Positions 5,792-31,987 of a stretch of 64,000 bases of DNA are shown one piece after another. The notes beneath the pieces are model-generated. The model saw only the letters and a program-made list of their open reading frames with translations. It made no database searches and had not been told where the DNA came from. The first letter of the stretch is position 1; every line of letters begins with the position of its first letter. The position numbers and the translations under genes were made by a program. The DNA lies in the NCBI GenBank assembly GCA_965208165.1, contig OZ242323.1, positions 1,364,078-1,428,077 on the forward strand. Reading direction: 5' to 3'. The stretch is from Vicinamibacterales bacterium (lineage in GTDB: Bacteria; Acidobacteriota; Vicinamibacteria; Vicinamibacterales; UBA8438).

Positions 5792-5924
5792 CAGGACGCC
5801 CGCGAGATCGGCGCGTGGCGCCGCCCCGCCGTGGCGTCGGCGGTCATCGGAGGGCTGGCGGCTGCTCCGGTCCGGCCGGCTCGTTGGTGCGGCGCGACAC
5901 CGGCGGCCGGTCCCTCGGGGACCG

Positions 5925-6136
5925 CGCCGCCGGGTCGAAGCGAGACGCCGCCGGGTCGAAGCGAGACGCCGCCGGGTCAAAGCGAGACGCCGCCGGGTCG
6001 AAGCGAGACGCCGCCGGGTCGCGAGAAGCCGGCCGGGTCAAAGCGAGACGCCGACCGGGTTGAAGCGAGACGCCGGCCGGGTCGAAGCGAGAAACCGGCC
6101 GGGTCGAAGCGAGAAGCCGGCCGAGTCGGAGCAGAG
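5925..6136. repeat. tandem repeat, 21-bp unit x about 10 (GCCGGGTCGAAGCGAGACGCC)
   Basis: Head-to-tail copies that degenerate toward the 3' side; intergenic. Confidence 0.85.
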
Positions 6137-6143
6137 GCGGCCG

Positions 6144-7151
6144 CTACTGCTGCGATTCCTCCTCGGCCGCGGCCCTGTCGTCCGCCCGCGCCCCGGACAG
6201 GATGCCCTCCATCGAGTAGTTCCCCTCGTGGCAGGCGTACTCGAACAACGGCGTGTCGGTCCGCTGCATGGGCATCGACGCCGTCCAGGGGACCGCCCAG
6301 GTGTCGAGGTCGTTCACCGTGAACGTGTACTCGAGGGTGTCGTCGTCCAGCCGGGTGAACCGCTCCACCAGGGTGAAGCTGTCGCTCGACGCCACGCCGG
6401 AGCCCCCCGAGGTCAGCGGGATCCACTGGCGCTGGTCGTTGAAGTTCGCCGACTCGATGACCAGCGTGTCGCCCTCCCAGTAGCCGCGCGAGTCGCCCGT
6501 CCACAGGCGGATGCCGTCGTCGAGGGCGGGGCGTCCGTCGAGGGGCACGATGCGCGAGGTGTGCACCATCTCGGTGTGGATGACCACGTGGTCGGGGGTC
6601 TGGAAGAGCTGCATGTTCTGGTTGTAGGCGAGCGGCGTGATGGGGGGGCCGGCGTTGAACCCCACGATGCACCGGTCGGACGTGTTGCGGTCGGTGTAGG
6701 TGTCGGCGGGGTGCTCGGCCATGTGCGCCCGCCGCGCCTCGGCGCGCTCGGCGCCGACCTCGGACAGCTCGGGGAACCGGCCGTTCGGAGGATCGGTGAT
6801 GAGCGACGTGCGCCGCGTCTCGATGGGCCGGGTGCCCCGGTCCATCCAGAAGTTGTTGTAGGCGCCGACGTTGCCGCCAGCCTCGGTCCTCTGCGCCTCG
6901 CGCTCCCAGAGCTCGATGTCGCGCTCCACGGCCTCCCGCTCGAGGGTCGCGGCCTCCTCCGGCGTATAGAACGCCTGGTCGCCCAGGTCTTCCGGCCGCT
7001 CCAGCGGGGTGATGGTGCGGAAGTCCCAGATGCCCTGCAGATCCGGCGCCCCCCACGGGGTCCGGGGCGCGTCCTGGGCCGCCGCCGGGGCCGCGGTCAG
7101 CCCCGCGATGGCGATCACGGCGAGCGCCGCGACGAGAGAACGATTGGTCAT
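6144..7151 (-). CDS. hypothetical secreted protein
   Basis: Signal peptide MTNRSLVAALAVIAIAGLTAAPAAAQ; long ORF in the correct-strand context; no recognised domain. Confidence 0.6.
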   Translation of the reverse strand: MTNRSLVAALAVIAIAGLTAAPAAAQDAPRTPWGAPDLQGIWDFRTITPLERPEDLGDQAFYTPEEAATLEREAVERDIELWEREAQRTEAGGNVGAYNNFWMDRGTRPIETRRTSLITDPPNGRFPELSEVGAERAEARRAHMAEHPADTYTDRNTSDRCIVGFNAGPPITPLAYNQNMQLFQTPDHVVIHTEMVHTSRIVPLDGRPALDDGIRLWTGDSRGYWEGDTLVIESANFNDQRQWIPLTSGGSGVASSDSFTLVERFTRLDDDTLEYTFTVNDLDTWAVPWTASMPMQRTDTPLFEYACHEGNYSMEGILSGARADDRAAAEEESQQ

Positions 7152-7405
7152 TGCATCCACCTCCTGGTGTCCCGGTCGTCTTTCCGTGTCCTGCCAATCA
7201 TCGATCCGGAGGGTGGTCGCGCGCAAGGACGGATCGGGCCGATCCTCGACACGGCGGTGTCCGCCGCCGGCGCACCACTGCCGACGGTACGGCCGCCCGG
7301 GACTCGGAGAGCCCGAGTCCGTGGCTGACCCCCCGCCGCATCATTCGATCTCCCTCACGTTCCCCGAGCCGGACGGGCGTGCAATGGCGGCGCGCGGCCG
7401 TATCC

Positions 7406-7781
7406 CTACTGGTCCTTGAAGTAGTGGTCCGTGTGGTCCAGCCAGTCCTGCCGCGGGGGGCTGAAGATGTCGACGTCGAGCGTCTCTTCGAGGGCCTCGG
7501 CCTTGTGCGGGACGTTCGACGGCAGGCGCAGGACCTCGCCCTCGGCGACGTCGAAGACCTGCGAGAGGTCGTCGCCCACCCAGAACCGGAGCTTGCCCTT
7601 GAGGATGTAGGCGAGCTGCTCGTTGTGGTGCGAGCTCGGGCACGATGGCGCCCTTCTCGAGGTAGACGTGGGCCACCATAGTGCTCGCGCCGGTCACGAT
7701 CCGGCGCTCGATGCGGTTGGTGACCCGCTCCCTGGGCATGTCGTTCCATGCGAACTTGGCGACGTCGGTCGGGTTGGCCAT
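7406..7781 (-). pseudogene. cupin-domain protein with +1 frameshift (pseudogene or sequencing error)
   Basis: N-terminus MANPTDVAKFAWNDMPRERVTNRIERRIVTGASTMVAHVYLEKGAIVP, then the cupin continues in another frame (SHHNEQLAYILKGKLRFWVGDDLSQVFDVAEGEVLRLPSNVPHKAEALEETLDVDIFSPP..DQ*) from about 7636. Total length is not a multiple of 3. Confidence 0.55.
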
Positions 7782-7934
7782 GGAGTCCAGTGTACGCGAG
7801 CTCGCGTCCGGGGAACCGTCGTCCTGGGGCGATTGGCGGAGTTGACACCCCGGGGGGCAGCGCCGATCATGGCGGCGAAACCGTCTTCCGCGCCGAGTGC
7901 GGGCCGCGCCGCAGCCCGGCGAACAGGAGCCGCG

Positions 7935-9734
7935 ATGCAGATGCAGTTTCGTGCTTCACGATGTGTTTCGGGGATCGCGCTCGCGGCCCTGACGCTGGCG
8001 TCGCCGCCCGGCAGCGCGTCGGCCCAGTCCGCGAACGAGTTCGTGCCGGTCACCGACGCGATGCTCCACGATCCGGCCCCCGAGGACTGGCTGACGTGGC
8101 GTCGCACCCTCGACGGGTGGGGCTACAGCCCGCTGGACCAGATCGACCGCGGCAGCGTGGGCCGGCTCCGCATGGTGTGGTCGCGCGGGCTCGCGACGGG
8201 GCGGCAGGAGGGCACGCCGCTCGCCTACCGGGGCGTCCTCTACATGCCGCAGTCGAGCGACGTCATCGAGGCGATCGACGCGGTGACCGGCGACCTGATC
8301 TGGCAGCACCGCCGCAACCTGCCCGACGACGTCTACGACTTCGTCGGCGGCAACGCCCGCAACAACCGCAACATCGCCATCTTCGACCGCTTCATCGTCA
8401 ACACCAGCGACGACGACTACTTCTTCGGGCTCGATGTCGAGACCGGGGAGATCGCGTGGGAGACGCAGATCTTCGACTACCAGGAGACGCCGGCCGGGCA
8501 CAGCTCGGGCCCCATCATCGCCGACGGCCGGGCCATCTCCGGCCGGAGCTGCCGTCCCCAGGGCGGTCCCGAGTCGTGCGTCATCGTGGCCCACGACGCG
8601 CGGACCGGCGAGGAGCTGTGGCGTCGGCGCACGGTGCCGGCCCCGGGCGAGCCGGGCGACGAGACGTGGGGCGACGTGCCCTACGAGGAGCGGGTGCACG
8701 TGGGCACGTGGATGCCGGCGAGCTACGACCCCGAGCTGCGGCTCATCTACCAGGGGACGTCGGTCACGTCGCCGGCCCCGAAGTTCATGCTGGGCGGGGT
8801 CGAGAACACGCACCTTTACCACAACTCGACGCTGGCCATCGACGTCGAGACCGGCGAGATCCGTTGGTACTACCAGCACCTGAACGACCACTGGGACCTC
8901 GACCACCCCTTCGAGCGTATCCTCGTCGACACCGCGGTGGCCCCCGACCCGTCCGAGGTGAGCTGGATCAACCCGCGCATCCAGCCCGGCGAGACGCGGC
9001 GGGTAGTGACCGGCATTCCCGGCAAGACCGGCGTCGTCTACACCCTCGACCGCGAGACCGGCGAGTTCCTGTGGGCCACCCCCACCGTCGCCCAGAACGT
9101 CATCAGCGGCATCGACGGGGCGACGGGCGCGGTGACCGAGAACGCGGAGGTGGTGTTCACCGCGGTAGGACAGCAGGTCTTCGCCTGCCCGACGTGGAAC
9201 GGCGGCAAGGACTGGGAGGCGGGCGCCTACAGCCCCCTCACCAACACCATGTACATGCCGCTGCGCAACACCTGCGCGCGCATGCTCGCGACGACCACTT
9301 TCCCCGACGACACCCCGGCCGCGCGCACGGAGAGCCGCTCGCGCACCTACGCCATCGCCTACCGCCACCAGCTCGCGCCGGGCAACGAGAACGCGGGCAC
9401 GGTGCGCGCGATCTCGGCCGAGACCGGCGAGACCCTGTGGCTCCACGAGCAGCGCGCGGCGACCATGTCGATGGTGGCGACGGGCGGGGGGCTGGTCTTC
9501 GGCGGCGACATCGCGGGGCGGTTCCGCGCCTTCGACCAGGAGACCGGCGAGGTGCTGTGGGAGATCAGCCTCGGCTCGCCGGTGAGCGGCTTCCCGATCA
9601 CCTATGCCGTCGACGGCCGGCAGTACCTCGCGGTGGGCACCGGAGCCGGGGGGACGGCGTCGCACTTCAGCGCCCTGACCCCGGAGATCCGGCCCGCCTC
9701 GGGCAATACCCTCTACGTGTTCGCTCTGCCTTGA
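7935..9734 (+). CDS. PQQ-dependent dehydrogenase, methanol/ethanol (quinoprotein ADH) family, secreted
   Basis: Signal peptide; DWLTWRRTLDGWGYSPLDQI; eight-bladed propeller W motifs throughout; AGGAG RBS before MQMQF. Confidence 0.9.
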   Translation: MQMQFRASRCVSGIALAALTLASPPGSASAQSANEFVPVTDAMLHDPAPEDWLTWRRTLDGWGYSPLDQIDRGSVGRLRMVWSRGLATGRQEGTPLAYRGVLYMPQSSDVIEAIDAVTGDLIWQHRRNLPDDVYDFVGGNARNNRNIAIFDRFIVNTSDDDYFFGLDVETGEIAWETQIFDYQETPAGHSSGPIIADGRAISGRSCRPQGGPESCVIVAHDARTGEELWRRRTVPAPGEPGDETWGDVPYEERVHVGTWMPASYDPELRLIYQGTSVTSPAPKFMLGGVENTHLYHNSTLAIDVETGEIRWYYQHLNDHWDLDHPFERILVDTAVAPDPSEVSWINPRIQPGETRRVVTGIPGKTGVVYTLDRETGEFLWATPTVAQNVISGIDGATGAVTENAEVVFTAVGQQVFACPTWNGGKDWEAGAYSPLTNTMYMPLRNTCARMLATTTFPDDTPAARTESRSRTYAIAYRHQLAPGNENAGTVRAISAETGETLWLHEQRAATMSMVATGGGLVFGGDIAGRFRAFDQETGEVLWEISLGSPVSGFPITYAVDGRQYLAVGTGAGGTASHFSALTPEIRPASGNTLYVFALP

Positions 9735-11771: not shown

Positions 11772-11879
11772 TGTCCCGCCACCGTGGTTCGAGGAACAAT
11801 CCTGTGCGGCACTACTTTAGTCTTGCAGGCAGTTACCGCGATCCAGAGCTTTCGCGAAACTTCACGGCCCCGACACTAG
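11768..11879 (+). mobile_element. MITE-like 112-bp element, copy A (TIR CTAGTGTC...GACACTAG)
   Basis: 8-bp perfect terminal inverted repeat. About 80% identical over its full length to 60489..60600, and in reverse to 60079..60185. Confidence 0.55.
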
Positions 11880-12460
11880 AAGATGGCGATCGGGTTCACC
11901 GGCGACCCCGTGCCGCCCGGCACCCGTAGCGGGGCCACCACCAGCAGGAACTCCCAGCGGTTGAGCCGGGCCGCGGTCTCGGCCGCCGCGTCGAGGTCGA
12001 TGTTGTCGAGCAGGTTCATCCCGCGCGCGACGATGGCGAAGCGGTGGATGGGGTTGACGCGCAGCCCCGGCACGCTGTCGGGCGCCTCGTGCACCGAGTC
12101 GGCCCCGAGCAGGGCGATGTCGCGCTCGGCCAGGAACGGGATGACCGAGGCGTCCCACCCCGACATCTCCCGCGTCGGCCCCACCGCCTCGCGGTAGGCC
12201 CAGCGGCCGGTGCGCAGCAGCAGCGCGTCGCCCGGCCCCAGCCGCACGCCGGCATACTCTTCCCACGCCTCGATGTCCTCGCGGTACAGCTTCGTGCCCG
12301 GCTCGAGGTACGGCACGCCCTTCAGCCGGGGCATGTCGACGAGCACCCCACGCGTCACCAGGCCGTCCCTCATCTGGGTGGTGTCCATCAGCGAGGGGTG
12401 CGGCTCTTTTTCATCGGCGATCGAGGGGTCCATGGGCTTCTGCGAGGAGCATGGCAAGAC

Positions 12461-14080
12461 CTACTTGATCCGTCGAAGGCGGGGTGAGGGTGGTGGGGGC
12501 GGCTCGGCGACGGGCGGTACTATCCCGTCGGCGTAGCGCTGGGCGTGGTTCCGTTCGTACTCGCGCGCTTCGTGGAAGGTCCAGTACGCATCGAAGTCGC
12601 CGCTGGCGCGCAGCGCCCGGAGCTTCAACACCGCCTCGGCCCCGACCAGGCGCCACCGGGCGCCGGTCAATTCCATCCGGTCGCGGACGAGGTGCCGGCA
12701 CGCCCCTTCGACAACGCCGGTGGCGATGGGATAGCCCGCCGCGAGGTAGCGGTCGTAGTGCAGATACGGTGCGTACTTCAGCAGGTAGTCCGCGCACGTA
12801 TCGACCGGCTTGCGGGTGTCGGGCGACAAGCCGGCGACGGTCGCCGCACGCCGCATCGACGACGCCACCTGGCGGGCCTTGCCCTCGAGAATGTCCCGCA
12901 CCCGCGTCCACGCCCAACACGCCAGCTCGGGGCTCCCCTCGCGATGGAATACGCGCGCCGCCTTCCAGACGTACTCGACCACGTGGATGATGTCCAGGAC
13001 CACCGTGACCTCCACCCCGAATTCTGCGGCGCCCGCTTCCACCAGGTCGAGCTGCGTCTCGGCCCCGTCGACGAGCACCACCCAGCGCTTGACGCGCTTC
13101 GGGTCGTGGCGCTCCGCTTCCAGCATCGCCTCGACGATCACCTCCCCGGGCTCCCGTTCGAGGCTCGCCCAGACCCGTTTCGCCACCGGGCGGGGCCGCA
13201 CCGCCGGGGGCGCGGCCTTCTTGCCCTTGCCCTTCTTGGTCTTGTCCCCCGGCTGTCGGGGCATCAAGCTCTGCAGGAACTCCTCCGCACTCCGCACGAA
13301 CGGCGCGACCGTGTAGACGGCGGCCACCGTCGCCATCCGCTTCGAGTGCTTCTTCTCCCCCGGCTTGAGGCGATTGAACGGGGAGAGCTGCTCCCGTTGC
13401 CGCCGACGCCGCTCGGCCTCCTTGCGCGTCGCCTCGCGCAGGTCCTCGCGATGCAGCACCACCCCCTTGCCGTCGAAGGTGAGCACGACAACCGACTCCT
13501 CCGGGGCCGGCTCGCCCGTCGCCGCACGGCGGGCTTCGTAGAACGCGTCGAAGTCCACGGCCGCGCGAGCCGCCAACTGCTCCGCCTGACGCTTCGGCAC
13601 CTCCGCGCCGGTACTCCGGGACAGATCGAACAACGCTTCGTCGAAAGACCGCGAGGCCGCCGCCTCCGCCACCCGCCGACGCACCTCCAGCGAGTAGCGC
13701 TCCACCGGCAGATTGAGCGACGCATCGAGCGGATGGAGACTATCGTGACCGGGGCGCGCATAGCCCACGCGACCGACATCCACCGTCCCGAAGACCGTCT
13801 CCACCGCGCGTTTGTGCACGCGCCGTTCCCGGCGCTCGACACCATCAGACCCCGCGACCGGACCCGCCGCCTCCCCAGGACTGCGTTGGTCGAGGTGACC
13901 TTGCAGCAGCTTCTGCATCAGCTCCTGGCCCCGCCGGTGCAGCTCCCGTTCGAGATCGCTCTCACTCATCTGCCGGGCCTCACGCGAAGAGAGGTAGGCT
14001 TTGGCCTCCGCAAAGGCCTCGTCCGCCGCCGCATACGGCGCCGGTGCGGATGCCGCGGCGGGGTGGGGAACAACTCGCAC
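12461..14080 (-). CDS. ISKra4-family transposase
   Basis: 539 aa; C-terminal GACRHLVRDRMELTGARWRLVGAEAVLKLRALRASGDFDAYWTFHEAREYERNH is characteristic of ISKra4-like transposases. Confidence 0.8.
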   Translation of the reverse strand: MRVVPHPAAASAPAPYAAADEAFAEAKAYLSSREARQMSESDLERELHRRGQELMQKLLQGHLDQRSPGEAAGPVAGSDGVERRERRVHKRAVETVFGTVDVGRVGYARPGHDSLHPLDASLNLPVERYSLEVRRRVAEAAASRSFDEALFDLSRSTGAEVPKRQAEQLAARAAVDFDAFYEARRAATGEPAPEESVVVLTFDGKGVVLHREDLREATRKEAERRRRQREQLSPFNRLKPGEKKHSKRMATVAAVYTVAPFVRSAEEFLQSLMPRQPGDKTKKGKGKKAAPPAVRPRPVAKRVWASLEREPGEVIVEAMLEAERHDPKRVKRWVVLVDGAETQLDLVEAGAAEFGVEVTVVLDIIHVVEYVWKAARVFHREGSPELACWAWTRVRDILEGKARQVASSMRRAATVAGLSPDTRKPVDTCADYLLKYAPYLHYDRYLAAGYPIATGVVEGACRHLVRDRMELTGARWRLVGAEAVLKLRALRASGDFDAYWTFHEAREYERNHAQRYADGIVPPVAEPPPPPSPRLRRIK

Positions 14081-14083
14081 GGC

Positions 14084-15001
14084 TCAACCCTCCCGAAGCC
14101 GCCGCTTCGCATCCCGGACCAAAGGATAGACCAGAACCGTCTTGGGCGCCTCGCCGACACGGCGGCCGTACCGGTCCATCCGCCCTCGACCGGCCGTGGC
14201 GCCCAACGCCACCCAGTTGGCGGCGCGATACGAACCGCCGTGGTGCCGGCTCGGGTCCACCAGCGTCTCCACGAGCCAGGGCTCGAGGCCGTAGCGGCGC
14301 GGCCAGTCGACCATCAAGTGCCCGAGCCCGCGCGACAGGACTGCGCTGGCCAGGTTCCTCACCCCGACCCACGGCAGCAGCAGGAAGCGGCTGTTGTTGA
14401 CCACGTGCTGGAGATTCCGCGCCCGAGTCGCGTCGTCCCAGCCGACCCAGCCATCCCGCGCCGCCATCCGCCACGCCGGGCTGGAGAACTGCAGGCAGCC
14501 GACCACCACCCGCTGAGGCCTCGCCGCGAACACCAGATAGCGCAGGTGGGCGCCGAAGGGGACCGTGTGCCCGAGGTAGTGGTAGCGGCCCACGAGCTCC
14601 CGGAACAGCAGGCGCTCGGCCGGCTCGCGTACCAGCTCGACATCCAGCGGCTCGACGTCGCGCACGCTGCCGACGAGCGGGCAACCCGGCTCTCCCGCCG
14701 CCGTCCGGGGCACGCGGGTGACCGAGCCGGGGGCGCGGCCCAGGCGCTTGTCCGGCAGCGCCACCGCACCCTCCGCGTCGAGCCGCTCCAGGAACTCGCG
14801 GCACTCGCGCGCCTTCAGCCTCCCGTTCGGGCGCCGCCACCGCAACAGCTCGCACACCGTGCGCGCCAGCTCCATCCGGCTCAAGCCCGGACAGTCCCGC
14901 ACGACCTCGCGGATCAGCGTCATCTCTCGCCCGCTGAAGGTGCGTCCCGAGAATCTCGTCGTCGCAGCCGCCATCGCAGGGGCTTTCCTTCCCCACGACA
15001 C
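14084..15001 (-). CDS. IS passenger protein (DUF4338-like)
   Basis: 305 aa; ends 4 nt before the transposase start; lies inside the IS inverted repeats; ...LVGRYHYLGHTVPFGAHLRYLVF...NLQHVVNNSRFLLLPWV. Family call from memory. Confidence 0.6.
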   Translation of the reverse strand: MSWGRKAPAMAAATTRFSGRTFSGREMTLIREVVRDCPGLSRMELARTVCELLRWRRPNGRLKARECREFLERLDAEGAVALPDKRLGRAPGSVTRVPRTAAGEPGCPLVGSVRDVEPLDVELVREPAERLLFRELVGRYHYLGHTVPFGAHLRYLVFAARPQRVVVGCLQFSSPAWRMAARDGWVGWDDATRARNLQHVVNNSRFLLLPWVGVRNLASAVLSRGLGHLMVDWPRRYGLEPWLVETLVDPSRHHGGSYRAANWVALGATAGRGRMDRYGRRVGEAPKTVLVYPLVRDAKRRLREG

Positions 15002-15748
15002 CGTACCAAAACGCCGCGCGAATGTCCAGAGGGAGCGCCGGACGGGAAGACCGGAGCGCGCCGGCGTCGTGATCAGGCCGGGCGAAGGCCCGAAAGCGGC
15101 GGGTGGAGACGCTGGCCGGAAGCTGTCCCCGGCCAGAGCGCACTAGCGAGCGCGGGCCCCGTGGGCATAACTCCTTATGAATGAGTGAGATAACATTCTA
15201 CGCAAAAGAGCCGCACCCATCAGCGAGCAGCCGTCCTCGGTGACCACGTCGCGGAAGTCGAGGCCGTTGTAGAGCCTGTCCTTGTAGAAGACGTGGCACA
15301 GCCCGTCGAGGTGGGAGTAGCTCACGCCGTGGAAATAGACCTCGACCCGGTCGCCCGAGTTCTGCCCCTCGGGATTGACGTTCATCTGCAGCACATAGGG
15401 CTCGGCCGCGTCGGGCGCTTCCTCGGTGAGGAAGTCGTGGGACAGCGACACGGTGGTGCCGGTCCGAACGAGGGCCGCCGCCTCGCGGCGCTTCTCGTCC
15501 GTCATCAGGTTGGCGGCGCCGATCTGGTCGTCGTCGCCCCACCGGCCCCAGTTCGACAGCTCGTCCATCCACCGGTCGAACTGCGCGATGCTGACCGGCT
15601 CGCGCTCGGGCGACTGGGCCGGTGCGTCGGCGGTCGACCCGACCAGGCCGAGTCCGGTGATGCCCGCCACGAGTATCGATGTTCTCCTCATGTTGCTCTC
15701 CCTGCGCCCGGTTCGGTGTTGGCCTGCTGGCGTCAGTGCGGTGAGATG

Positions 15749-16045: not shown

Positions 16046-16096
16046 CGCTCGACCTCCTCGGCCGATCCTGCGGTCGCCGGTCCCAAGGTGCGGTCC

Positions 16097-16470
16097 GGTT
16101 CACGCCAGTCCAAGCACCTCCTCCATCACCAGTCGCGGCCCGCGGTCGTGGTCCCGCACGACGTTGCGCGTCCGGTTTCACGCGAGTCCAAGCACGTCTT
16201 CCATGACCAGCCGCGGACCGCGGTCGTGGTCCCGTACGACGTTGCGCGTCCGGTCTCACGCGAGTCCAAGCACCTCCATGACCAGCCGCGGACCGCGGTC
16301 GTGGTCCCGTACGACGTTGCGCGTCCGGTTTCACGCGAGTCCAAGCACCTCCTCCATGACCAGCCGCGGACCGCGGTCGTGGTCCCGTACGACGTTGCGC
16401 GTCCGGTCTCACGCGAGTCCAAGCACCTCCTCCATGACCAGCCGCGGACCGCGGTCGTGGTCCCGCACGA
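16097..16470. repeat. tandem repeat: 75-bp unit x5 duplicating the 3' end plus stop codon of the carboxylesterase gene
   Basis: Unit GGT(Y)TCACGCGAGTCCAAGCACCTCCTCCATGACCAGCCGCGGACCGCGGTCGTGGTCCCGTACGACGTTGCGCGTCC; one copy is 72 bp. Each copy encodes ...RDHDRGPRLVMEEVLGLA* on the minus strand. The last copy is the genuine gene end. Confidence 0.85.
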
Positions 16471-18076
16471 TGAGGCTCTCGTTGTCGAAGATCATCGCCT
16501 GCCGGGTGTCCGCGGCGTAAACGGGCCAGTGCGGCAGGTCCCGGGTGTCGGGGTTCCCGGTGCGGGCGAACGCCGTCCACGCCGCGCTCATCCGGCCGGC
16601 GAGAACGCGCGCGGCCGGCGATCCGGGCAGATCGAACAGCCGCGTCTCGGTGTGGTCGACGTTGTCGAAGACGAAGCGAATCTCGAGGGCGTGGGGCGTC
16701 TTCATCTCGCCCCCCATGTCCCAGTCGAAGCGGTAGAGCCAGGCGGGGGCGCCGCCCTGCGCGGTCTTCCGCGCCGCGAGCTCGCGCGCGTACATGCCGC
16801 GCGGGTGGTCCGTGCAGATCAGGATGTAGAGGTCCCACGGGCGCGCGTCGGGGTAGGCGTCGCGATAGGCGGTGACGACGCGGCCGGCGTCGGCGTCGCT
16901 CCGCAGCCGTGCCGCCATGCGCCCCTGCAGGTCGGTCTCCGTCATGTCGAGCGGCATCTCGCGGCCCCGCCACCACAGCGTCTCCTCGGTGCGGTTGTAG
17001 CCGACGATCACCGGCACGTCTCTCGAAATCTCGGCCGCCGCCGGATCGAAGGGATGAACCGGGATGAAGCGGCCGTCGAGCACGGGGGTGCTGCCGGACA
17101 TGCCGACCACGTGCTCCTCCGGCTCGAAGTCGCCGGACACCTCGGTGAATGCCGCGAACAGCCGGTCGGTCGGGACCGCCTGCAGATCCCGCGCCTGGTC
17201 GGCGCGCAGCCCGAGCTTCGCGAGCAGCAGCTCCGCCTCGCGGGTCGCATCGGACGCATGGCGAACGCGCAGCACCGCGCCGCTCTGGATGATCGCGCGG
17301 TGGAAGAGGCCCTTGGCGTCGGGCATCGCGAGCAGGGTCGAGACCTTCCGTCCGCCGCCGGACTCTCCGAACACGGTCACCCGGCCCGGATCGCCGCCGA
17401 ACGCCTCGATGTTGTCGCGTACCCACTTGAGGGCGGCGACGACGTCGAGCATGCCCGTGCAGCCGGACGCCGCGAAGTCGTCGCCGGCCAGCTCGGCGAG
17501 GTACGCCGACCCGAAGATGTTGAGGCGGTGGTTGATGGTGACGACGACCACGTCGCTCCGGTTGCACAGGTTGACGCCGTCGTAGGTGGCCGAAGACCCG
17601 GAGCCGGAGCTGAAGCCGCCGCCGTGCAGCCAGACCATGACCGGCCGCCGGCCACCGTCGCCGAGCCCCCGCGTCCACACGTTGAGGAAAAGGCAGTCCT
17701 CGCTGGCGACGGGCTGGGAGCGACCCTGCGGCGCCGCCGCGCCGTAGTCCAGCGCGTCGCGCACGCCGGTCCACGGCGCCGGCGCCGCGGGCGGCATGAA
17801 CCGGTTCCGCCCCCCCGTCGGTGCGCCGTATCGAACCCCCTTGAAGACGTGGACGCCCGCGCGGACGGCGCCTCGGACGCGGCCCGCGGTTGTCTCGACC
17901 GTCGCGCCCGAGGCCGTCTCCTGGCCCCACGCGGAAACGGTCGCGGCCGGCTCGCCGTGCAGCAGCCGTGCCGCGCCGCCGGCGGCGGCGAGGCCCGACG
18001 CCCGGCGCAGGAACCCGCGTCGGCTCCAGAGGTCGTGGCGTGTGGTCGCGGAGCCGGCGTGATGCGTTGCTGTCAT
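16409..18076 (-). CDS. carboxylesterase/lipase type B family, Tat-secreted
   Basis: Tat motif SRRGFLRRASGLAAAGGAA; FGESGGG nucleophile elbow (GESAG-type); EDCLFLNVW. Confidence 0.9.
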   Translation of the reverse strand: MTATHHAGSATTRHDLWSRRGFLRRASGLAAAGGAARLLHGEPAATVSAWGQETASGATVETTAGRVRGAVRAGVHVFKGVRYGAPTGGRNRFMPPAAPAPWTGVRDALDYGAAAPQGRSQPVASEDCLFLNVWTRGLGDGGRRPVMVWLHGGGFSSGSGSSATYDGVNLCNRSDVVVVTINHRLNIFGSAYLAELAGDDFAASGCTGMLDVVAALKWVRDNIEAFGGDPGRVTVFGESGGGRKVSTLLAMPDAKGLFHRAIIQSGAVLRVRHASDATREAELLLAKLGLRADQARDLQAVPTDRLFAAFTEVSGDFEPEEHVVGMSGSTPVLDGRFIPVHPFDPAAAEISRDVPVIVGYNRTEETLWWRGREMPLDMTETDLQGRMAARLRSDADAGRVVTAYRDAYPDARPWDLYILICTDHPRGMYARELAARKTAQGGAPAWLYRFDWDMGGEMKTPHALEIRFVFDNVDHTETRLFDLPGSPAARVLAGRMSAAWTAFARTGNPDTRDLPHWPVYAADTRQAMIFDNESLIVRDHDRGPRLVMEEVLGLA

Positions 18077-18160
18077 ACTACAGGCCTCCTGTCATCGGGC
18101 TCTTCCGTTGCGTCTTCTCGGACGTCTACTACGTCGATTGTCACTGATGGAGTTGGAGTG

Positions 18161-18448
18161 GTGGCCTTGCAGAATCCGCCCCACCCGGGAGGAATCGTAC
18201 GGCGCCGATGCCTCGATCCGCTCGGGCTGTCGGTGACGGAGGCCGCGGCCGGTCTGGGGGTGACACGCCAGGCGCTGTCGGATCTCGTCAACGAGAAGAC
18301 CGGCGTTTCGGTGGAAATGGCGATCCGGCTGTCCAAGGCGTTCGGGTCGTCGCCCGCGACGTGGCTCGGCATGCAGATCGCGTACGACCTCTGGCAGATG
18401 CGCACGCGTACTCGTGAGATCGAGGTCCGGCGATTCAGCACCGAATAG
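18161..18448 (+). CDS. higA: HigA-family antitoxin / XRE-type HTH regulator (no cognate HigB seen)
   Basis: (V)ALQNPPHPGGIVRRRCLDPLGLSVTEAAAGLGVTRQALSDLVNEKTGVSVEMAIRLSKAFGSSPATWLGMQ is the canonical HigA HTH. It is the 3' tail of a long shadow ORF; GTG start. Confidence 0.7.
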   Translation: MALQNPPHPGGIVRRRCLDPLGLSVTEAAAGLGVTRQALSDLVNEKTGVSVEMAIRLSKAFGSSPATWLGMQIAYDLWQMRTRTREIEVRRFSTE

Positions 18449-18482
18449 CCGCAAGCGGGCGACCCTGTATCCGAGGGATCGT

Positions 18483-18971
18483 TCACGGCTCGCGCAGCTC
18501 CACGGGCTGACCGTGCGGGGTGTGGCGGTAGGCGTCGGCCCACGCCTCCTTGCGGGCGTGGAGGGCCGGCGCGTCGGTCAGGCCCTTGGCGGCGGCGAGG
18601 CGCTCGAGGGTGGCGACCCAGTGGTGGTAGTAGCGCGAGCCGTCGTCGGGCTCGCCCTGCGCGGCGGCGGCGCGAAGCTCGTCGGCGAGGGCGCCGGTCC
18701 ATTCCTTCCAGGTGAAGTGGCCCTGCTCGCTGAGGCTGACGGCGAGGGCGAACGCCTGCGCCTGCCACGGCTCCGCGAACACGGGTCCGTCCTCGTCGCG
18801 CGGCAGCGGAGGGAGGGCGGCGAGCCGTTCGGCGTCCAGCCGCGGCACGGCGGGCCGGGGCGCGCGGGGGGGTGGCTCAGCCGTCGGTCCGTCGGCCCGC
18901 GGCGCCGGGAGGGCGTCCGGCCTAGGGGCGCCGGGGCCCGGTGCGCGGGGCCCAGGGTCAGGCAGGTTCAA
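18483..18971 (-). CDS. nitrile hydratase accessory (activator/metallochaperone) protein
   Basis: ...PVFAEPWQAQAFALAVSLSEQGHFTWKEWTGAL...YYHHWVATLERLAAAKGL...TPHGQPVEL matches the NHase beta-homologue accessory family. Overlaps the nthB stop. Confidence 0.75.
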   Translation of the reverse strand: MNLPDPGPRAPGPGAPRPDALPAPRADGPTAEPPPRAPRPAVPRLDAERLAALPPLPRDEDGPVFAEPWQAQAFALAVSLSEQGHFTWKEWTGALADELRAAAAQGEPDDGSRYYHHWVATLERLAAAKGLTDAPALHARKEAWADAYRHTPHGQPVELREP

Positions 18972-19611
18972 GGTGGTCCTCCCAGAGATCGACGTAGACG
19001 GTGTCGCGCGCGGACGCGCGCTCTCCCCACAGGTCGCGCGCCGTGAAGCGCACGGTGTAGACGTGCTGGGGCGGGCGGTCGATCGCCTGCCCGGCTTCGT
19101 CGGTGTCCTGCAGGGCGTACACGCCGTTGTCCCGCTTGACGACGCCCGTCTTGCCGCGCGTGTAGCGCGGCAGCCGCGTGTGTCCCGGCGGATGCAGATT
19201 GCGCGCGCGCACGTCCTCGCCCGGTCGGAAGCGCGGTGGCACGTCGGCGTTCAGTCGCCCGGGGCCGGAGGGGCGCGCGACGGGCCCGGGGCGGAGAGCC
19301 AACCCCGCCGGTCCCGGCCCCGGCCGTCCCGTTTCGAGCTCGGCCCTCGTCACCAGGCCGCTGCGTAGGAGCCGGTCCATCGATATCGCGAACCAGCGCT
19401 CGTAGTACGACATGCGCAGGTAGTCGGCGGGGGGGATGCGCTCGAGGTCGTAGCGGAAGCTGCCCCAGCCCGGCACCCGGTCCTTGGGCCGGAGGGCGGC
19501 GCGGATGGCGAACACGCGGCCCTCCCAGGGGTGGTGGAAGACGGGCTCGTCGTCTTCGCGCTCGACGGGGCCGAATCCGTCCATGCCGCCCATGTCGTGG
19601 ACGCCGTTCAT
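18958..19611 (-). CDS. nthB: nitrile hydratase beta subunit
   Basis: MNGVHDMGGMDGFGPVEREDDEPVFHHPWEGRVFAI...; unsplit beta chain, so nitrile hydratase rather than thiocyanate hydrolase. Confidence 0.85.
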   Translation of the reverse strand: MNGVHDMGGMDGFGPVEREDDEPVFHHPWEGRVFAIRAALRPKDRVPGWGSFRYDLERIPPADYLRMSYYERWFAISMDRLLRSGLVTRAELETGRPGPGPAGLALRPGPVARPSGPGRLNADVPPRFRPGEDVRARNLHPPGHTRLPRYTRGKTGVVKRDNGVYALQDTDEAGQAIDRPPQHVYTVRFTARDLWGERASARDTVYVDLWEDHLEPA

Positions 19612-19745
19612 GTCGATCTCCCGCCGGTGGGGGGCGGCTCGACGGCGACTTCGCGCTCGACGGGGCCGAATCCGTCCATGCCGCTCATGTCGTGGACGCC
19701 GTTCATGCGGACCTCCCGCCGGCCGGCGGCGGCACGACGGCAACG
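19556..19745. repeat. 95-bp tandem duplication of the nthA-3' / nthB-5' junction
   Basis: ATG-to-ATG period is 95 bp. The proximal copy gives a 32-aa [35 protein letters not shown] whose stop overlaps the real nthB ATG (ATGA), just as its own ATG overlaps the nthA stop. Confidence 0.75.
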
Positions 19746-20386
19746 CCGATCATGGCGTCGCGCGAGACGAGACCGGCCAGCTCTTCCTCGGTCATTCCCT
19801 CCGTGCCGGCAGGTCGTGCGGGCAGCACCAGGTAGCGGATCTCCGCCGTGCTGTCCCACACCCGCACCTCGATGTCGTCGCCGACGTCGACGCCGAACTC
19901 GCGCAGCACCGCGCGCGGCTCGATGACGGCGCGCGCGCGGTAGGCGTTGGACTTGTACCAGACCGGGGGCAGCCCGAGGGTCGGCCACGGGTAGCAGGAG
20001 CAGAGGGTGCAGACGACGAGGTTGTGGACATCGGCGGTGTTCTCGACGACCACCATGTGCTCGCCCTGGGTGCCGCCGAACCCGATCTCGGCGATGGCCG
20101 CGGTCCCGTCGTCGAGCAGCCGCGTCTTGTAGGCGGGGTCGGCCCAGGCCCGGGCCACGACCTGGGCGCCGTTCCGGGGGCCGATGCGGTTCTCGTATGC
20201 GTCGACCACCGCGTCGAGGTCGGCGGGGTCGACCATCTTCTTGTCGACGAGAATCGACTCGAGCGCGCGCACGCGCAGCGCGATGTCGTCGGGCACGACC
20301 TGGTGGTCGTGGTGGTGCTCGTGTCCGCCCGGCTCGCCGCCGGCCGCCTGCCTTCCGCGGGCCGGGCCGTTCTCCGATTCTGTCAT
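19703..20386 (-). CDS. nthA: nitrile hydratase alpha subunit, cobalt type
   Basis: Metal-binding [10 protein letters not shown] (Co-type CTLCSC); AGGAG RBS before MTESENG. Confidence 0.9.
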
Positions 20387-20560
20387 CTCCTGGGCTCCCG
20401 ATCGTCTGTCGCCCGAGCCGTAACCTGGCGACGACAGGCCGGGCGACGCCACGTGCTCTCGCCGGTTCGTGGCCAACGCCGCCCGCGGAGGGGTCCGTAA
20501 GTCAAGCAGCCGTCGGGCGGGTATCGATCCGGCTACCGGCGCCGGACGCTCGCCGACCCC

Positions 20561-20764
20561 TTGGGACAGTGATCGACATAAGGTTGCCAACTGCAACTGG
20601 GCGCAACCCGTTTCTCACCGTTTCGGGCGCTTGGCGCGTGGCAAGGTAATTTCCGTCATTAGTTGGGACAGTGATCGACACAGGGTTGCCAACTGGACTC
20701 GGGCTCAGCCCGTATTCTACGGTTTCGCGCTCCAGGCAGACGGCAAGGCAATTCTCGTCAGTGT
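20561..20764. repeat. two tandem ~102-bp direct repeats upstream of nthA
   Basis: TTGGGACAGTGATCGACAyAgGGTTGCCAACTG... occurs twice head-to-tail between the NTF2-like gene stop and the nthA promoter region. Confidence 0.7.
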
Positions 20765-20766
20765 CC

Positions 20767-21219
20767 TCACTGCACCCGCGTGCTGTGCGCCGAGACGCAC
20801 TGCCAGCGGCCGTCGCGCCGTATCCAGACGTCGGTGTACCGCAATGTCAGCTCGGATTCCTGTCCCTGGCGCAGGCCGACGAGGTGCAGGGTGAACCACA
20901 CCACCGCGGTGTCCCCGTAGATCGCGACGCGGAAGTCGTCCTGGACGGCCGAGATCACCGCCTGGTTGAAGTTGGCGACGAGTTCCAGCTCCCGCGCCTT
21001 GTCGCCGCGGCTGCCGTCGTCGTAGGTGCCGCGGAACTCGTCGGCGAGCAGGCCCTCGATGACGTCCACGTCCCCCGTGTAGACCGCGTCGTTCCAGCTT
21101 CGCTCGAGCTCGATCAAGGTCTCCCGGGTGGACTGGGCCGATTGGGCGCCCGCCGTCGCCGCCACGGCGAGAAGGACGGCGGCAAGCATCCACGAGAAGG
21201 GTCGGCGGCAGGTTCGCAT
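20767..21219 (-). CDS. secreted NTF2-like / DUF4440 (SnoaL-like) protein
   Basis: Signal peptide; ...LIELERSWNDAVYTGDVDVIEGLLADEF...RDGRWQCVSAH is the NTF2 fold pattern. Confidence 0.7.
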   Translation of the reverse strand: MRTCRRPFSWMLAAVLLAVAATAGAQSAQSTRETLIELERSWNDAVYTGDVDVIEGLLADEFRGTYDDGSRGDKARELELVANFNQAVISAVQDDFRVAIYGDTAVVWFTLHLVGLRQGQESELTLRYTDVWIRRDGRWQCVSAHSTRVQ

Positions 21220-21406
21220 CGTTGGCGTTCCTTTCAAATGGCCGCGGCGTCGCTGCCGACGCTACGGGGCGGGGGCAACCGCGGGGCACTTGCCCACGCG
21301 CCCGTCGCCCGCAGAATCTCGCACTGCAACTCCGATGTCCGCATTGTCGAACCCCCGGGCGGCGTTATCGCCGTTGTCGGGGTGGCGCGGTCCCACGGCG
21401 CGGGCG

Positions 21407-31817: not shown

Positions 31818-31829
31818 AGGACGTCACGG

Positions 31830-31966
31830 GTCGGGTACCGCGACGAACGACGGTTCGGGGGCGGGCATGGACCGGGGAGATGCGACGCCAAGTCCCCGGT
31901 CGGGTACCGCGACGAACGACGGTTCGGGGGGCGGCATGGATCGGGAGATGCGACGCCAAGTCCCCG
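31830..31966. repeat. tandem repeat, ~69-bp unit x2, containing a CGGGGA...TCCCCG hairpin
   Basis: GTCGGGTACCGCGACGAACGACGGTTCGGGGGCGGGCATGGACCGGGGAGATGCGACGCCAAGTCCCCG occurs twice head-to-tail in the intergenic leader of the next gene. Confidence 0.7.
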
Positions 31967-31987
31967 GCGCTTGGAAGGAGTCGTCAC

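Follow-up and report, generated by a model that had tools for sequence, protein, structure and literature searches.

A cobalt-type nitrile hydratase operon in Vicinamibacterales with tandem units at the alpha/beta junction, a repeated 105-nt element and a higBA remnant

The nitrile hydratase operon and its neighbours

The window, which is the whole 64-kb stretch of DNA analysed here, comes from a soil bacterium of the Acidobacteriota, order Vicinamibacterales, and carries the genes of a nitrile hydratase (NHase) together with several repeats and a convergent higA gene (Table 1). The product of nthA matches Pfam NHase_alpha (1.1e-89) and lies above the NHase-alpha equivalog cut-off (TIGR01323, 308 bits against 249.85). 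The beta subunit reaches 200 bits against a cut-off of 152 (TIGR03888), and the accessory protein, itself beta-like by Pfam, reaches 93.6 bits against 46 (TIGR03889). Metal-binding motifs of the Co type contain Thr and Tyr where those of the Fe type have Ser and Thr, and the alpha translation presents V-C-T-L-C-S-C-Y. The best solved structure for the alpha subunit is 3qxe (2e-91), labelled as a Co-type NHase alpha subunit, and its best solved-structure matches all carry Co-type labels. Thiocyanate hydrolase, raised in the first-pass annotation as the competing affiliation, is rejected for nthA, the gamma model TIGR03887 giving 176 bits, below its cut-off of 291.45. Judged by the three TIGR models and the VCTLCSCY motif, the genes encode a bona fide Co-type NHase, as that annotation had proposed, and not a thiocyanate hydrolase.

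Table 1. Coordinates of the features at the NHase locus (window positions)
Feature	Position	Strand	Description
Type-B carboxylesterase gene	16409..18076	minus	Pfam COesterase 2.5e-92; downstream neighbour of the NHase genes
higB remnant	18122..18147	plus	last 8 codons plus stop (DVYYVDCH*)
higA antitoxin gene	18167-18448	plus	convergent with the operon; TIGR02607 HigA 106.5 bits (cut-off 47.7); Pfam HTH_3
Accessory (activator) gene	18483-18971	minus	nitrile hydratase accessory protein; start codon uncertain
nthB	18958-19611	minus	nitrile hydratase beta subunit, one polypeptide; Pfam NHase_beta_N and NHase_beta_C
95-nt tandem units	19548-19642 / 19643-19737	minus	89% identical; TRF period 95, 2.0 copies
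Mini-ORF, 32 codons	19608..19706	minus	ATG overlaps nthA stop, TGA overlaps nthB start (ATGA at both)
nthA	19703-20386	minus	Co-type nitrile hydratase alpha subunit; VCTLCSCY; His-rich N-terminus HEHHHDH
nthA-proximal spacer	20387..20553	minus	Shine-Dalgarno AGGAG 5 nt ahead of nthA ATG
Proximal element copy	20554..20660	minus	same family as distal copy, other subfamily, 5' end damaged; nhmmer E = 2.2e-29
Distal element copy	20660..20764	minus	~105 nt, inverted-repeat ends; nhmmer E = 1.8e-28
DUF4440/SnoaL-like gene	20767..21219	minus	Pfam DUF4440 1.6e-19; predicted signal peptide (judged by eye)

The DUF4440 gene lies directly upstream of nthA on the same strand and is syntenic in ~14 species. 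It is probably the first cistron of the NHase operon, the make-up of which is most likely DUF4440-nthA-nthB-activator, with DUF4440 presumably co-transcribed. On the downstream side, the carboxylesterase gene is syntenic in the window and in the fetched loci L001, L005, L008, L010, L012-L014, and L016, and the whole locus sits in a Vicinamibacterales synteny block common to ~15 species. One genome scan returned 311 relatives, including ~15 Vicinamibacterales species with an alpha identity of 84-94% and many Gemmatimonadota and Acidobacteriota MAGs. The Acidobacteriota background given in the first-pass annotation stands, whereas its view that an NHase is unusual there does not.

Compared with Co-type NHase operons of the PDB 3QXE type, the window shares the gene order alpha-beta-accessory, the cobalt motif, the His-rich alpha N-terminus and the single-chain beta subunit. 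It differs in its host (Acidobacteriota, Vicinamibacterales), in the possession of mini-ORFs between alpha and beta, and in its neighbourhood, where a predicted secreted DUF4440 protein is encoded upstream and a carboxylesterase and a cyclase-family hydrolase downstream, and where no amidase, AmiC/MarR/AraC-type regulator or cobalt transporter was found. ORFs were called by a codon-position GC filter and then scanned, the scan covering part of the 64-kb window; among the ORFs scanned there was no amidase, aldoxime dehydratase or cobalt transporter, in line with the lack of an amidase remarked on earlier.

In the case of higA, the start codon is TTG in the window and ATG in the relatives L008, L010, and L014, where higA is preceded by an intact HigB ORF of 92-95 aa in the canonical higB-then-higA order. 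DNA homology to these intact modules sets in only from about 18122 onward, and no complete higB was found upstream of the window higA. From this comparison, the window gene is the leftover of a higBA module whose higB was deleted: its product still passes TIGR02607 as in other higBA modules, but the module has decayed, with higB cut to eight codons and TTG in place of ATG as the higA start, and a link to the NHase is undemonstrated. Direct adjacency of higA to the accessory gene is confined to the window species, L008, and L009; in L010 and L014 the esterase gene comes between higA and the operon, and the DNA fetched around the operon of L005, L012, L013, and L016 has no higA.

The 105-nt element between DUF4440 and nthA

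Two ~102-bp direct repeats upstream of nthA, reported in the first-pass annotation, are present at 20561-20658 and 20663-20760, with 76-78% identity (BLAST E about 5e-16), and are the only copies in the 64-kb window. They are located between two co-oriented genes, not at the head of the operon, and form the bulk of two ~105-nt elements that share 72% identity. The distal copy begins right behind the DUF4440 stop codon (TGA followed by GGACACTGACG), and the proximal copy is 88% identical (93% by BLAST) to that of L092, a metagenome contig on which the element lies between FKBP and PQQ genes. Both ends of the element are formed by conserved, imperfect inverted repeats (5' AAGGACAGTGACGGGAAT.ACCTTGCC ... 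GGCA.....TATCGATCACTGTCCCAA 3'). The 5' end GGACAGTGA-CG agrees with the reverse complement of the 3' end, GGGACAGTGATCG, and similarity between the terminal inverted repeats reaches ~30 nt, through TTGCCA. The centre of ~45 nt is variable and unconserved between subfamilies, and there is no conserved ORF inside the element.

Beyond this spacer, nhmmer placed single copies between DUF1080 and DUF4440 in L005 (inverted), L010, L011, and L015, and between GFO and DUF1080 in L007, with three different spacers near the NHase operon occupied and both orientations represented. Metagenome contigs supply at least four other contexts, namely AMP-ligase, cyclase, FKBP/PQQ and an unannotated ORF, and the copies of L085, L086, L089, and L005, at four different loci, are 83-95% identical. 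As to a target-site duplication, AA stands on both flanks of nearly all copies, the inverted one included, and the comparison of filled and empty sites is ambiguous (TAG/G against TAA/GGAC...CCC/AAGG). The terminal 14-mer of the element has no further match in the window, where no cognate transposase turned up either; the ends of the IS-like insertion at about 12.4-15.2 kb are different.

The DUF4440-nthA spacer itself ranges from 1 to 380 nt across species. A single nucleotide separates the DUF4440 stop from the nthA start (TGAcATG) in L006, L012, L013, and L016, and L010, L011, and L015 retain a 29-nt remnant of the element 5' arm at the site of the distal copy. Only the nthA-proximal part of the spacer is common to relatives (spacer positions 241-380 against L005/L008, 72-75% identity), and neither a sigma-70-like promoter nor a terminator was found in this part (20387..20553, minus strand).

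ERIC, Correia/NEMIS, RUP, and REP-BIME are MITE-like or imperfect-palindrome intergenic repeats of bacteria. The present element resembles them in its length of ~105 nt, its non-coding and intergenic nature and its imperfect terminal inverted repeats, and likewise in its occurrence in both orientations and at unrelated loci, in subfamilies of near-identical copies and often behind a stop codon inside operons; it differs in having no sequence similarity to any Rfam family. Going by the dispersal of the element, the two upstream repeats are probably separate insertions of a ~105-nt non-coding dispersed sequence, putatively mobile like a MITE or ERIC, which seems to represent a hitherto undescribed Vicinamibacterales family. 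The older, distal copy would have inserted straight behind the DUF4440 stop and the younger, proximal copy then beside it, each insertion extending the intercistronic spacer. Any effect on nthA expression, e.g., through an mRNA hairpin, would be incidental and is unproven.

The first-pass annotation had instead placed the repeats in the promoter or leader of nthA and had seen in HigA the only regulator candidate nearby. A cis-regulatory device specific to nthA, either an operator array for HigA acting as the NHase regulator or a tandem riboswitch or leader RNA, agrees with the location of the units on the sense strand, 175-375 nt ahead of nthA, with the inverted repeats of the TTGCC...GGCAA type in each unit and with the DNA binding of HigA-family proteins (TIGR02607). 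However, most relatives have either nothing or the 29-nt remnant at this position, so that the absence in close relatives named in that annotation as a counter-indication largely holds here, and the element recurs in further spacers, in reverse orientation and next to unrelated genes. The two window copies also fall in different subfamilies, which argues against this reading. As for a leader RNA, Rfam gave no match at the gathering threshold in the window and none even at E <= 10 in 20300-20900, the fold z-scores of the units were -1.6 to +1.0, with no stability beyond shuffles, and RNAalifold gave 1-2 compensated pairs and covariation terms of -0.49 and -0.38 kcal/mol. Simultaneously, the regulatory part assigned to HigA is opposed by its relocation within, or absence from, the DNA fetched around many syntenic operons and by the intact HigB partner in relatives, although a HigA-family protein without HigB was correctly recognised. 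A switch specific to nthA is thus largely refuted by the unconserved position, the unrelated contexts and the lack of Rfam, fold or covariation support, and this reading is very improbable.

A functional RNA of a more general kind deserves separate weighing. The element could be a REP/ERIC-like intercistronic hairpin that sets the stability of mRNA segments, or a small RNA family, uncoupling DUF4440 from nthA. In its predicted common fold, both ends pair in a long closing stem and CCUUGCC/GGCAAGG forms an inner one, several one-sided changes can form G-U pairs in the sense strand but not in the opposite strand, and the element of L092 is 93% identical to that of the window while the flanking coding DNA is about 70% identical. 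Furthermore, roughly 8 of 10 copies (6 of 8 if only independent copies are counted) read in the sense direction and have co-directional genes on either side, and they often abut the upstream stop. The sense bias and the stop-codon adjacency hint at a role at the RNA level, but with n=8 independent copies the orientation bias is not statistically significant, and at the same site L005 carries its copy in inverted orientation. Covariation contributes only -0.4 to -0.5 kcal/mol and no more than 1-2 compensated pairs, the fold energies do not improve on those of shuffles, and the centre differs between subfamilies. We consider such an RNA module rather unlikely, and retain the dispersed element as the preferred reading of the repeats.

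Tandem 95-nt units at the alpha/beta junction

Across the junction of nthA and nthB lies a 95-nt tandem duplication, a feature absent from the first-pass annotation. Each unit is composed of the C-terminal tail codons of alpha, the Shine-Dalgarno sequence GGCGGGAG, an ATG and the first 19 codons of beta. Because 95 equals 3n-1 and the genes overlap by ATGA, each added unit becomes a self-contained ORF of 32 codons. Residues 1-19 of this mini-ORF match Pfam NHase_beta_N, and it is annotated as a gene on the public contigs L001-L004.

By BLAST, the 95-nt unit matches only NHase alpha/beta junctions, in the window and in all fetched loci, and only this Vicinamibacterales clade has it in multiple copies. 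The 95-nt period and the identical junction recur in L001, L005, L010, L012, L013, L015, and L016, and the complete short units (those of the window, L002, and the seven loci just named) are all spaced by 95 nt, comprise 32 codons and have ATGA at both ends. One to three mini-ORFs are present in 8 of 16 species, leaving half of the related species without the peptide, and the unit count per species is 1 to 4. The window, L002, L003, and L004 have two units each, whereas L001, with an identical alpha protein and from the same species, has four (three mini-ORFs), arranged as a 190-nt higher-order repeat with 99% identity. In an NJ tree, 7 of the 9 species in one clade, the coding divergence of which is about 8-9%, have units, against 0 of 3 outgroups. 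Derived states are shared as well, with GAA at the junction codon in all extra units and V16A in the units of L010-L016.

Among 13 distinct units, the Shine-Dalgarno sequence, the ATG, the first 10 codons and the stop are conserved, while residues 11-32 vary freely. Variability at the three codon positions is 47/42/39, with no excess at the third. The stop/start overlap is invariant and the neighbouring tail codons are the most variable part of the unit. Despite ~138 differences from the inferred parent sequence, these units contain no length change at all. The sole indel in the unbiased genome sample, in L011, preserves the chain. In addition, three indel variants (P0001-P0003, loci L093-L096) have two units fused in frame with the -4 overlaps to alpha and beta kept; these come from a length-biased protein database from which very short ORFs seem to be missing, as no 32-residue mini-ORF was returned, and in which broken chains would therefore be invisible. 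Simulation of substitutions alone gave each unit a probability of 0.23-0.71 of remaining intact, and the product over 11 units, 5e-5, is an upper bound on significance that overstates it, as the units share ancestry.

Readings of the junction array

Taken together, the locus is probably a standard Co-type NHase operon remodelled by three lineage-specific kinds of repeat or mobile DNA, none of which is a dedicated NHase regulator. For the junction array, the following course is proposed as the likely one. Duplication of the 95-nt junction of alpha stop and beta start would have arisen once, in the ancestor of the clade, and the array would since have grown and shrunk to give 1-4 units. Each mini-ORF, with its own Shine-Dalgarno sequence, begins at the stop codon of the ORF before it and ends at the start codon of the ORF after it, and ribosomes would be handed from alpha via the mini-ORF or mini-ORFs to beta by termination-reinitiation. 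Variants that break the relay would lower beta synthesis and be purged by selection, which may account for conserved signals alongside an unconserved peptide. Unit copy number may modestly tune the alpha:beta ratio. A stronger reading, in which the array is a heritable, copy-number-variable translational relay that sets alpha:beta (and activator) output, with every unit kept translatable by selection, is put forward tentatively and is rather improbable. The Shine-Dalgarno sequence of each unit itself allows independent initiation at beta, in which case selection on the relay would be weak.

Neutral units are the reading to be set beside this course, and they are rather unlikely, though with some plausibility: the frames would be intact through youth, gene conversion and the rarity of stop codons at 71% GC, with no effect on expression. 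Tandem arrays with periods of 49-140 nt are common in the clade, at about 25 rows in 300 kb of partly homologous loci, the peptide has no codon-position signature, and the per-unit odds of intactness under substitutions alone are not small. Moreover, the first 30 nt of the mini-ORF are near-identical to the true beta start, as would be expected under gene conversion; copying from the functional flanks, or simply a recent origin, could explain why units are intact. Youth is contradicted by the shared junction and derived states across 7 of 9 species at about 8-9% divergence, which indicate that the units are old. Neutrality in general has against it the identity of the junction in all species, the constant length of the 13 distinct units through all their substitutions, the preserved chain in L011 and in the three fused variants (from the length-biased search), and an overlap that stays invariant while the adjoining tail codons vary most.

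A function of the 32-residue peptide itself, e.g., binding to apo-alpha in imitation of the beta N-terminal arm while cobalt is inserted or subunits are swapped, would suit its first 19 residues, which are those of beta, and the beta-like character of the NHase accessory protein. The freedom of residues 11-32 to vary, equally across the three codon positions, and the absence of the peptide from half of the related species make such a function extremely improbable.

Mycobacterial interspersed repetitive units (MIRU), reportedly described by Supply et al. in 1997, are the closest analogue of the 95-nt units. MIRU arrays lie inside operons such as senX3-regX3 and differ in copy number between strains. 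They are intergenic tandem repeats of tens of bases with a short ORF running along the flanking genes and a -4 nt (NTGA) coupling to the downstream gene (PMC12548453). The 95-nt units are similarly placed in tandem between genes, have ATGA (-4) overlaps and vary in copy number, as between the window and L001. However, they are not interspersed, being made from the flanking genes' own ends and confined to the NHase alpha/beta junction; they occur in Acidobacteriota and not in Actinobacteria, and their spread over about eight species looks like descent from one event and not like repeated insertion. To our knowledge, nothing of the relay kind has been described in this phylum. If the relay reading is true, it would be a MIRU-like device born de novo from the coupling junction itself.

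Nitrile hydratase operon, neighbouring genes and HigA

The assignment of the window genes to a Co-type nitrile hydratase (NHase), made in the first-pass annotation, is borne out by the NCBIfam model scores, by the motif VCTLCSCY in the translated alpha chain and by the best solved relative of this chain, the Co-type NHase alpha subunit in 3qxe (2e-91). Among solved structures, the Fe-type enzymes and the thiocyanate hydrolase gamma chain rank far lower than 3qxe, and the alpha chain reaches 176 bits on the SCNase model, under the cut-off of 291, which argues against a place among the thiocyanate hydrolases.

Coordinates of the features in the window
Feature	Position	Strand	Basis
nthA	19703-20386	minus	Pfam NHase_alpha 1.1e-89; NCBIfam TIGR01323 308 bits, cut-off 250
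nthB	18958-19611	minus	TIGR03888 200 bits
NHase accessory gene	18483-18971	minus	TIGR03889 94 bits
higA (93 aa), convergent with the NHase genes	18167-18448	plus	HigA equivalog model 106.5 bits
Mini-ORF, 32 codons	19608-19706	minus	sequence and translation
95-nt tandem duplication	19548-19737		repeat search (TRF), 89-91% identity
~102-bp direct repeat, proximal	20561-20658		76-78% identity to distal repeat, BLAST E ~5e-16
~102-bp direct repeat, distal	20663-20760
nthA-proximal spacer	20387-20553
DUF4440/SnoaL-like gene	20767-21219
78-nt x 5 tandem array	16089-16470		93% matches
21-22-nt x 10 tandem array	5925-6143
69-nt x 2 tandem array	31829-31967
IS-like insertion, ~2.7 kb	~12461-15142
DruA/DUF4338-like gene in the insertion	14084-15001		Pfam DruA 1.7e-49
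Split cyclase-family gene (PF04199)	11876-12460 and 15143-15691

An identical alpha protein is encoded on four public metagenome contigs (L001-L004), and its closest genome relatives are ~15 species-level Vicinamibacterales MAGs (84-94% identity), across which the order GFO/IDH oxidoreductase, DUF1080, DUF4440, nthA, nthB, accessory gene, (HigA) and carboxylesterase is syntenic. Homologues of 64-79% identity are plentiful in other Acidobacteriota, Gemmatimonadota and Proteobacteria MAGs; hence, the taxonomic setting is unremarkable, and the unusual host background suggested earlier does not hold. The window NHase, and the NHase finding as first submitted when taken alone, is ordinary.

No match to an amidase, CN-hydrolase, aldoxime dehydratase or cobalt transporter exists among the scanned window ORFs, those passing a codon-position GC filter that gives partial coverage of the window, and within this scope the reported lack of a nearby amidase is upheld. 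Downstream, the conserved genes encode a type-B carboxylesterase, a member of the cyclase family, to which arylformamidases belong, and a beta-eliminating lyase. One downstream hydrolase, of the carboxylesterase or cyclase family, may replace the usual amidase. The cyclase-family gene is split in the window by an IS-like insertion, whose ends are inverted AAAAGAGCCGCACCC, and the same-species contig L001 carries it unbroken (327 aa). In addition, the DUF4440/SnoaL-like protein carries an apparent Sec signal peptide, MRTCRRPFSWMLAAVLLAVAATAGAQS, and its gene abuts nthA at 1-nt spacing in four relatives; it is odd for a secreted protein to share an operon with a cytoplasmic enzyme. At the more distant NHase locus L018, also of Vicinamibacterales, a second beta-like gene (7751-8395), 58% identical to the window nthB, lies downstream of the accessory gene.

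The convergent HigA-family gene had been described as lacking HigB, which is correct, and named as a candidate NHase regulator, for which the relatives give no support. In L008, L010 and L014, an intact 92-95-aa HigB ORF (MVRSFRHRGLEALYEG...DVDYVDYH) precedes the orthologous higA. Homology of the window to these higBA modules starts only at ~18122 in the DNA alignment, leaving the last eight codons of higB (DVYYVDCH and the stop), a remnant too short for detection by tblastn; the higA start codon is TTG in the window versus ATG in the three relatives. In the window, L008 and L009, the accessory gene and the esterase flank the module; in L010 and L014 it is found on the far side of the esterase, and the fetched DNA of L005, L012, L013 and L016 does not contain it. 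The window HigA is thus toxin-antitoxin debris, part of a decaying, positionally unstable module and no conserved regulator of the NHase.

A dispersed 105-nt element in the DUF4440-nthA spacer

The two ~102-bp direct repeats noticed before are real, and they are the only copies within the window. A profile built from both units finds single copies in the relatives, none of them upstream of nthA. One copy is located directly 3' of the DUF1080 stop codon in L010, L011 and L015, an inverted copy occupies the same site in L005, and in L007 the copy lies between GFO and DUF1080. Further copies, found by pattern scan on metagenome contigs, are neighbours of an AMP-dependent ligase or of a cyclase-family gene, or separate an FKBP isomerase gene from a PQQ dehydrogenase gene. 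One such contig, L090, is palindromic, with 3.4 kb between the two arms of a perfect 2373-nt inverted self-duplication (1-2373 and 5748-8120) that most likely arose in assembly; both of its element copies are counted as one locus.

The ends of the element are conserved, 5' AAGGACAGTGACGGGAAT.ACCTTGCC and GGCA.....TATCGATCACTGTCCCAA 3', and form imperfect inverted repeats of one another around a variable centre of ~45 nt. The subfamilies cut across loci, so the two window units represent two insertions: the proximal copy matches the one between FKBP and PQQ at 88% identity (93% by BLAST) and its distal neighbour at only 72%, which rules out local tandem duplication as their origin, and the copies in L085, L086, L089 and L005 share 83-95% identity at four different sites. 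The IS-like insertion of the window was considered as an autonomous partner and rejected, as its ends differ. The element very often starts directly after a stop codon (TGA|GGAC, TAA|GGAC or TAA|GCAC in the window, L010, L011, L015, L005 and the metagenome contig L092), and the stop codon is TAA at filled sites versus TAG at empty orthologous sites. This contrast points to a preference of the element for rare A-rich targets, or to a stop codon that is partly furnished by the element.

The spacer between DUF4440 and nthA is itself variable, with 1 nt (TGAcATG) in L006, L012, L013 and L016, 49-72 nt in L007, L009, L010, L011, L015 and L017, 166-185 nt in L005, L008, L014 and L019, and 380 nt in the window. 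A 29-nt remnant of the 5' arm of the element follows the DUF4440 stop in L010, L011 and L015; hence, the distal insertion predates the split of these lineages. The window spacer is common to L005 and L008 only in the nthA-proximal ~140-170 nt (L005 and L008 5838-6000), where GC-rich hairpins are predicted from three sequences, too few to evaluate. One of them is a conserved 9-bp stem, CCGCCCGCUGC…GCGGGCGG, and another lies just 5' of the SD with apparently compensated changes.

The repeats had been read as an nthA promoter, leader or regulatory element, which is not supported by their placement in the relatives or by the scans. No sigma-70-like promoter and no minus-strand intrinsic terminator was detected in 18000-21400. 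Most copies are sense-oriented between co-directional genes and many adjoin stop codons, which hints weakly at a role at the RNA level; however, such a role is unlikely, since Rfam gives no match in the whole window, nor permissively in 20300-20900, the two units (either strand) and four relatives, each folded singly, have energies like those of shuffles, and covariation among 12 and 7 element copies (RNAalifold) is negligible. The only RNAalifold stems are the terminal stem and TTGCC/GGCAA, essentially invariant or changed on one side, and a structured RNA was rejected in the absence of excess stability or covariation beyond these inverted-end stems. A MIRU-like coupled ORF within the element was likewise rejected; the GTG overlaps the DUF4440 stop, and the ORF ends after 17 codons. 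It is concluded that the element is a MITE/ERIC-like dispersed intergenic repeat, by chance present twice in the first intercistronic spacer of the operon. It apparently constitutes an undescribed small repeat family of Vicinamibacterales, and annotating it as a control element of nthA is unwarranted.

Mini-ORF array at the nthA-nthB junction

A 95-nt tandem duplication, missed in the first-pass annotation, straddles the boundary of nthA and nthB. The true nthA and nthB genes overlap as ATGA, and because 95 = 3 x 32 - 1, the extra unit is a 32-codon ORF, in which 13 alpha-tail codons continue the frame of 19 beta-head codons. The ATG of the mini-ORF overlaps the nthA stop, its TGA overlaps the nthB ATG, and each 95-nt unit contains an SD, GGCGGGAG. 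One extra mini-ORF is present in the window, L002, L003, L004, L010, L013 and L015, two in L005 and L016, and three in L012 and in L001, which shares species and alpha sequence with the window; none is present in L006-L009, L014, L017 and L019. The exact 95-nt spacing and the ATGA overlap at both ends are retained in all these loci with mini-ORFs. The array of L001 contains a 190-nt higher-order repeat with 99% identity, so its expansion is recent.

On a neighbour-joining tree of four concatenated genes, arrays occur in 7/9 species of one clade and in 0/3 outgroups. The extra units share derived states, namely the junction codon GAA in all and V16A in the L010-L016 units. Most simply, the array would date from a single ancient duplication and would since have expanded, contracted and twice been lost. 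The SD and AUG lie within the structures predicted for the alpha/beta junction units, whose energies are no better than those of shuffles. No prior description emerged from literature searches that combined nitrile hydratase with tandem repeats, with translational coupling or with Vicinamibacter.

The 13 distinct units hardly differ in the SD, the ATG, codons 1-10 and the TGA/ATGA overlap, and codons 11-32 vary freely, with equal variability by codon position (47/42/39); thus, constraint acts on the translation signals and the frame and not on the peptide. In a substitutions-only simulation, the per-unit probability of retaining the start, the open frame and the overlapping stop is 0.23-0.71, and the product over 11 units, 5e-5, overstates significance because the units share ancestry. 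No length change occurs in the 13 units despite ~138 differences from the inferred parent sequence. Indel variants are two units fused in frame with the -4 overlaps with alpha and beta retained; the L011 MAG (L093/L094) has +1 nt at the overlap, L095 a 90-nt period and L096 an internal frameshift. The latter examples form a length-biased sample, as the protein search with a concatenated peptide query returned only fused variants of at least 44 residues and no 32-residue mini-ORFs, the database apparently containing no very short ORFs.

Proposed translational relay and comparison with MIRU

Among spacings for translational coupling, the -4 nt start/stop overlap occurs most often and works best; ribosome reinitiation and RNA-unfolding models of the coupling are both current, and the MIRU architecture keeps damage to expression minimal (PMC12548453, which cites Supply et al. 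1997 for the last point). The array at the NHase junction resembles MIRU in architecture and variable copy number, but it is a duplicate of the operon's own junction, confined to one locus, and its host belongs to Acidobacteriota. Any 3n-1 duplication over an ATGA junction would automatically yield a relay-competent mini-ORF. TRF gives ~25 rows of 49-140-nt period in 300 kb of fetched, partly homologous loci, so these genomes often undergo such duplication. Where the relay is kept, a duplication may be tolerated or mildly useful, and relay-breaking variants would be purged; the copy number could possibly tune the alpha:beta ratio.

Tandem duplications are also found at other sites. The 78-nt unit of the window comprises the last ~20 carboxylesterase codons (…VRDHDRGPRLVMEEVLGLA), the stop codon and 15 nt beyond, so the array places four extra copies of the gene end in the 3' untranslated region; it also exists in L001 (14107-14491). 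The 21-22-nt array extends into a VCA0040-like membrane protein gene at its 5' end. In L007, an in-frame 102-nt duplication in nthB (6909-7113, 96% identical) extends beta to 251 aa versus 217 aa. The duplicated 84-nt unit of L011 (5193-5355) joins the DUF1080 3' end to the first ~30 nt of the 105-nt element, and L012 has a 66-nt unit in two tandem copies (5307-5438) between DUF1080 and DUF4440. These arrays suggest that the clade is unusually prone to tandem duplication of 50-140 nt.

The junction array is MIRU-like and the repeat family is MITE-like, without a new category. For the finding as submitted, the value of these results is mostly corrective; the mini-ORF array and the small repeat family lift the interest of the locus to moderate. 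The array is a natural, evolutionarily persistent case outside mycobacteria of tandem repeats made harmless or useful through stop/start-overlapped mini-ORFs. The series of 0 to 3 units is ready-made for examining the effect of termination-reinitiation chains on subunit stoichiometry, a question relevant to heterologous expression of nitrile hydratases, which are used industrially. Furthermore, the arrays could act as strain markers (VNTR loci) for an abundant, poorly cultured soil lineage.
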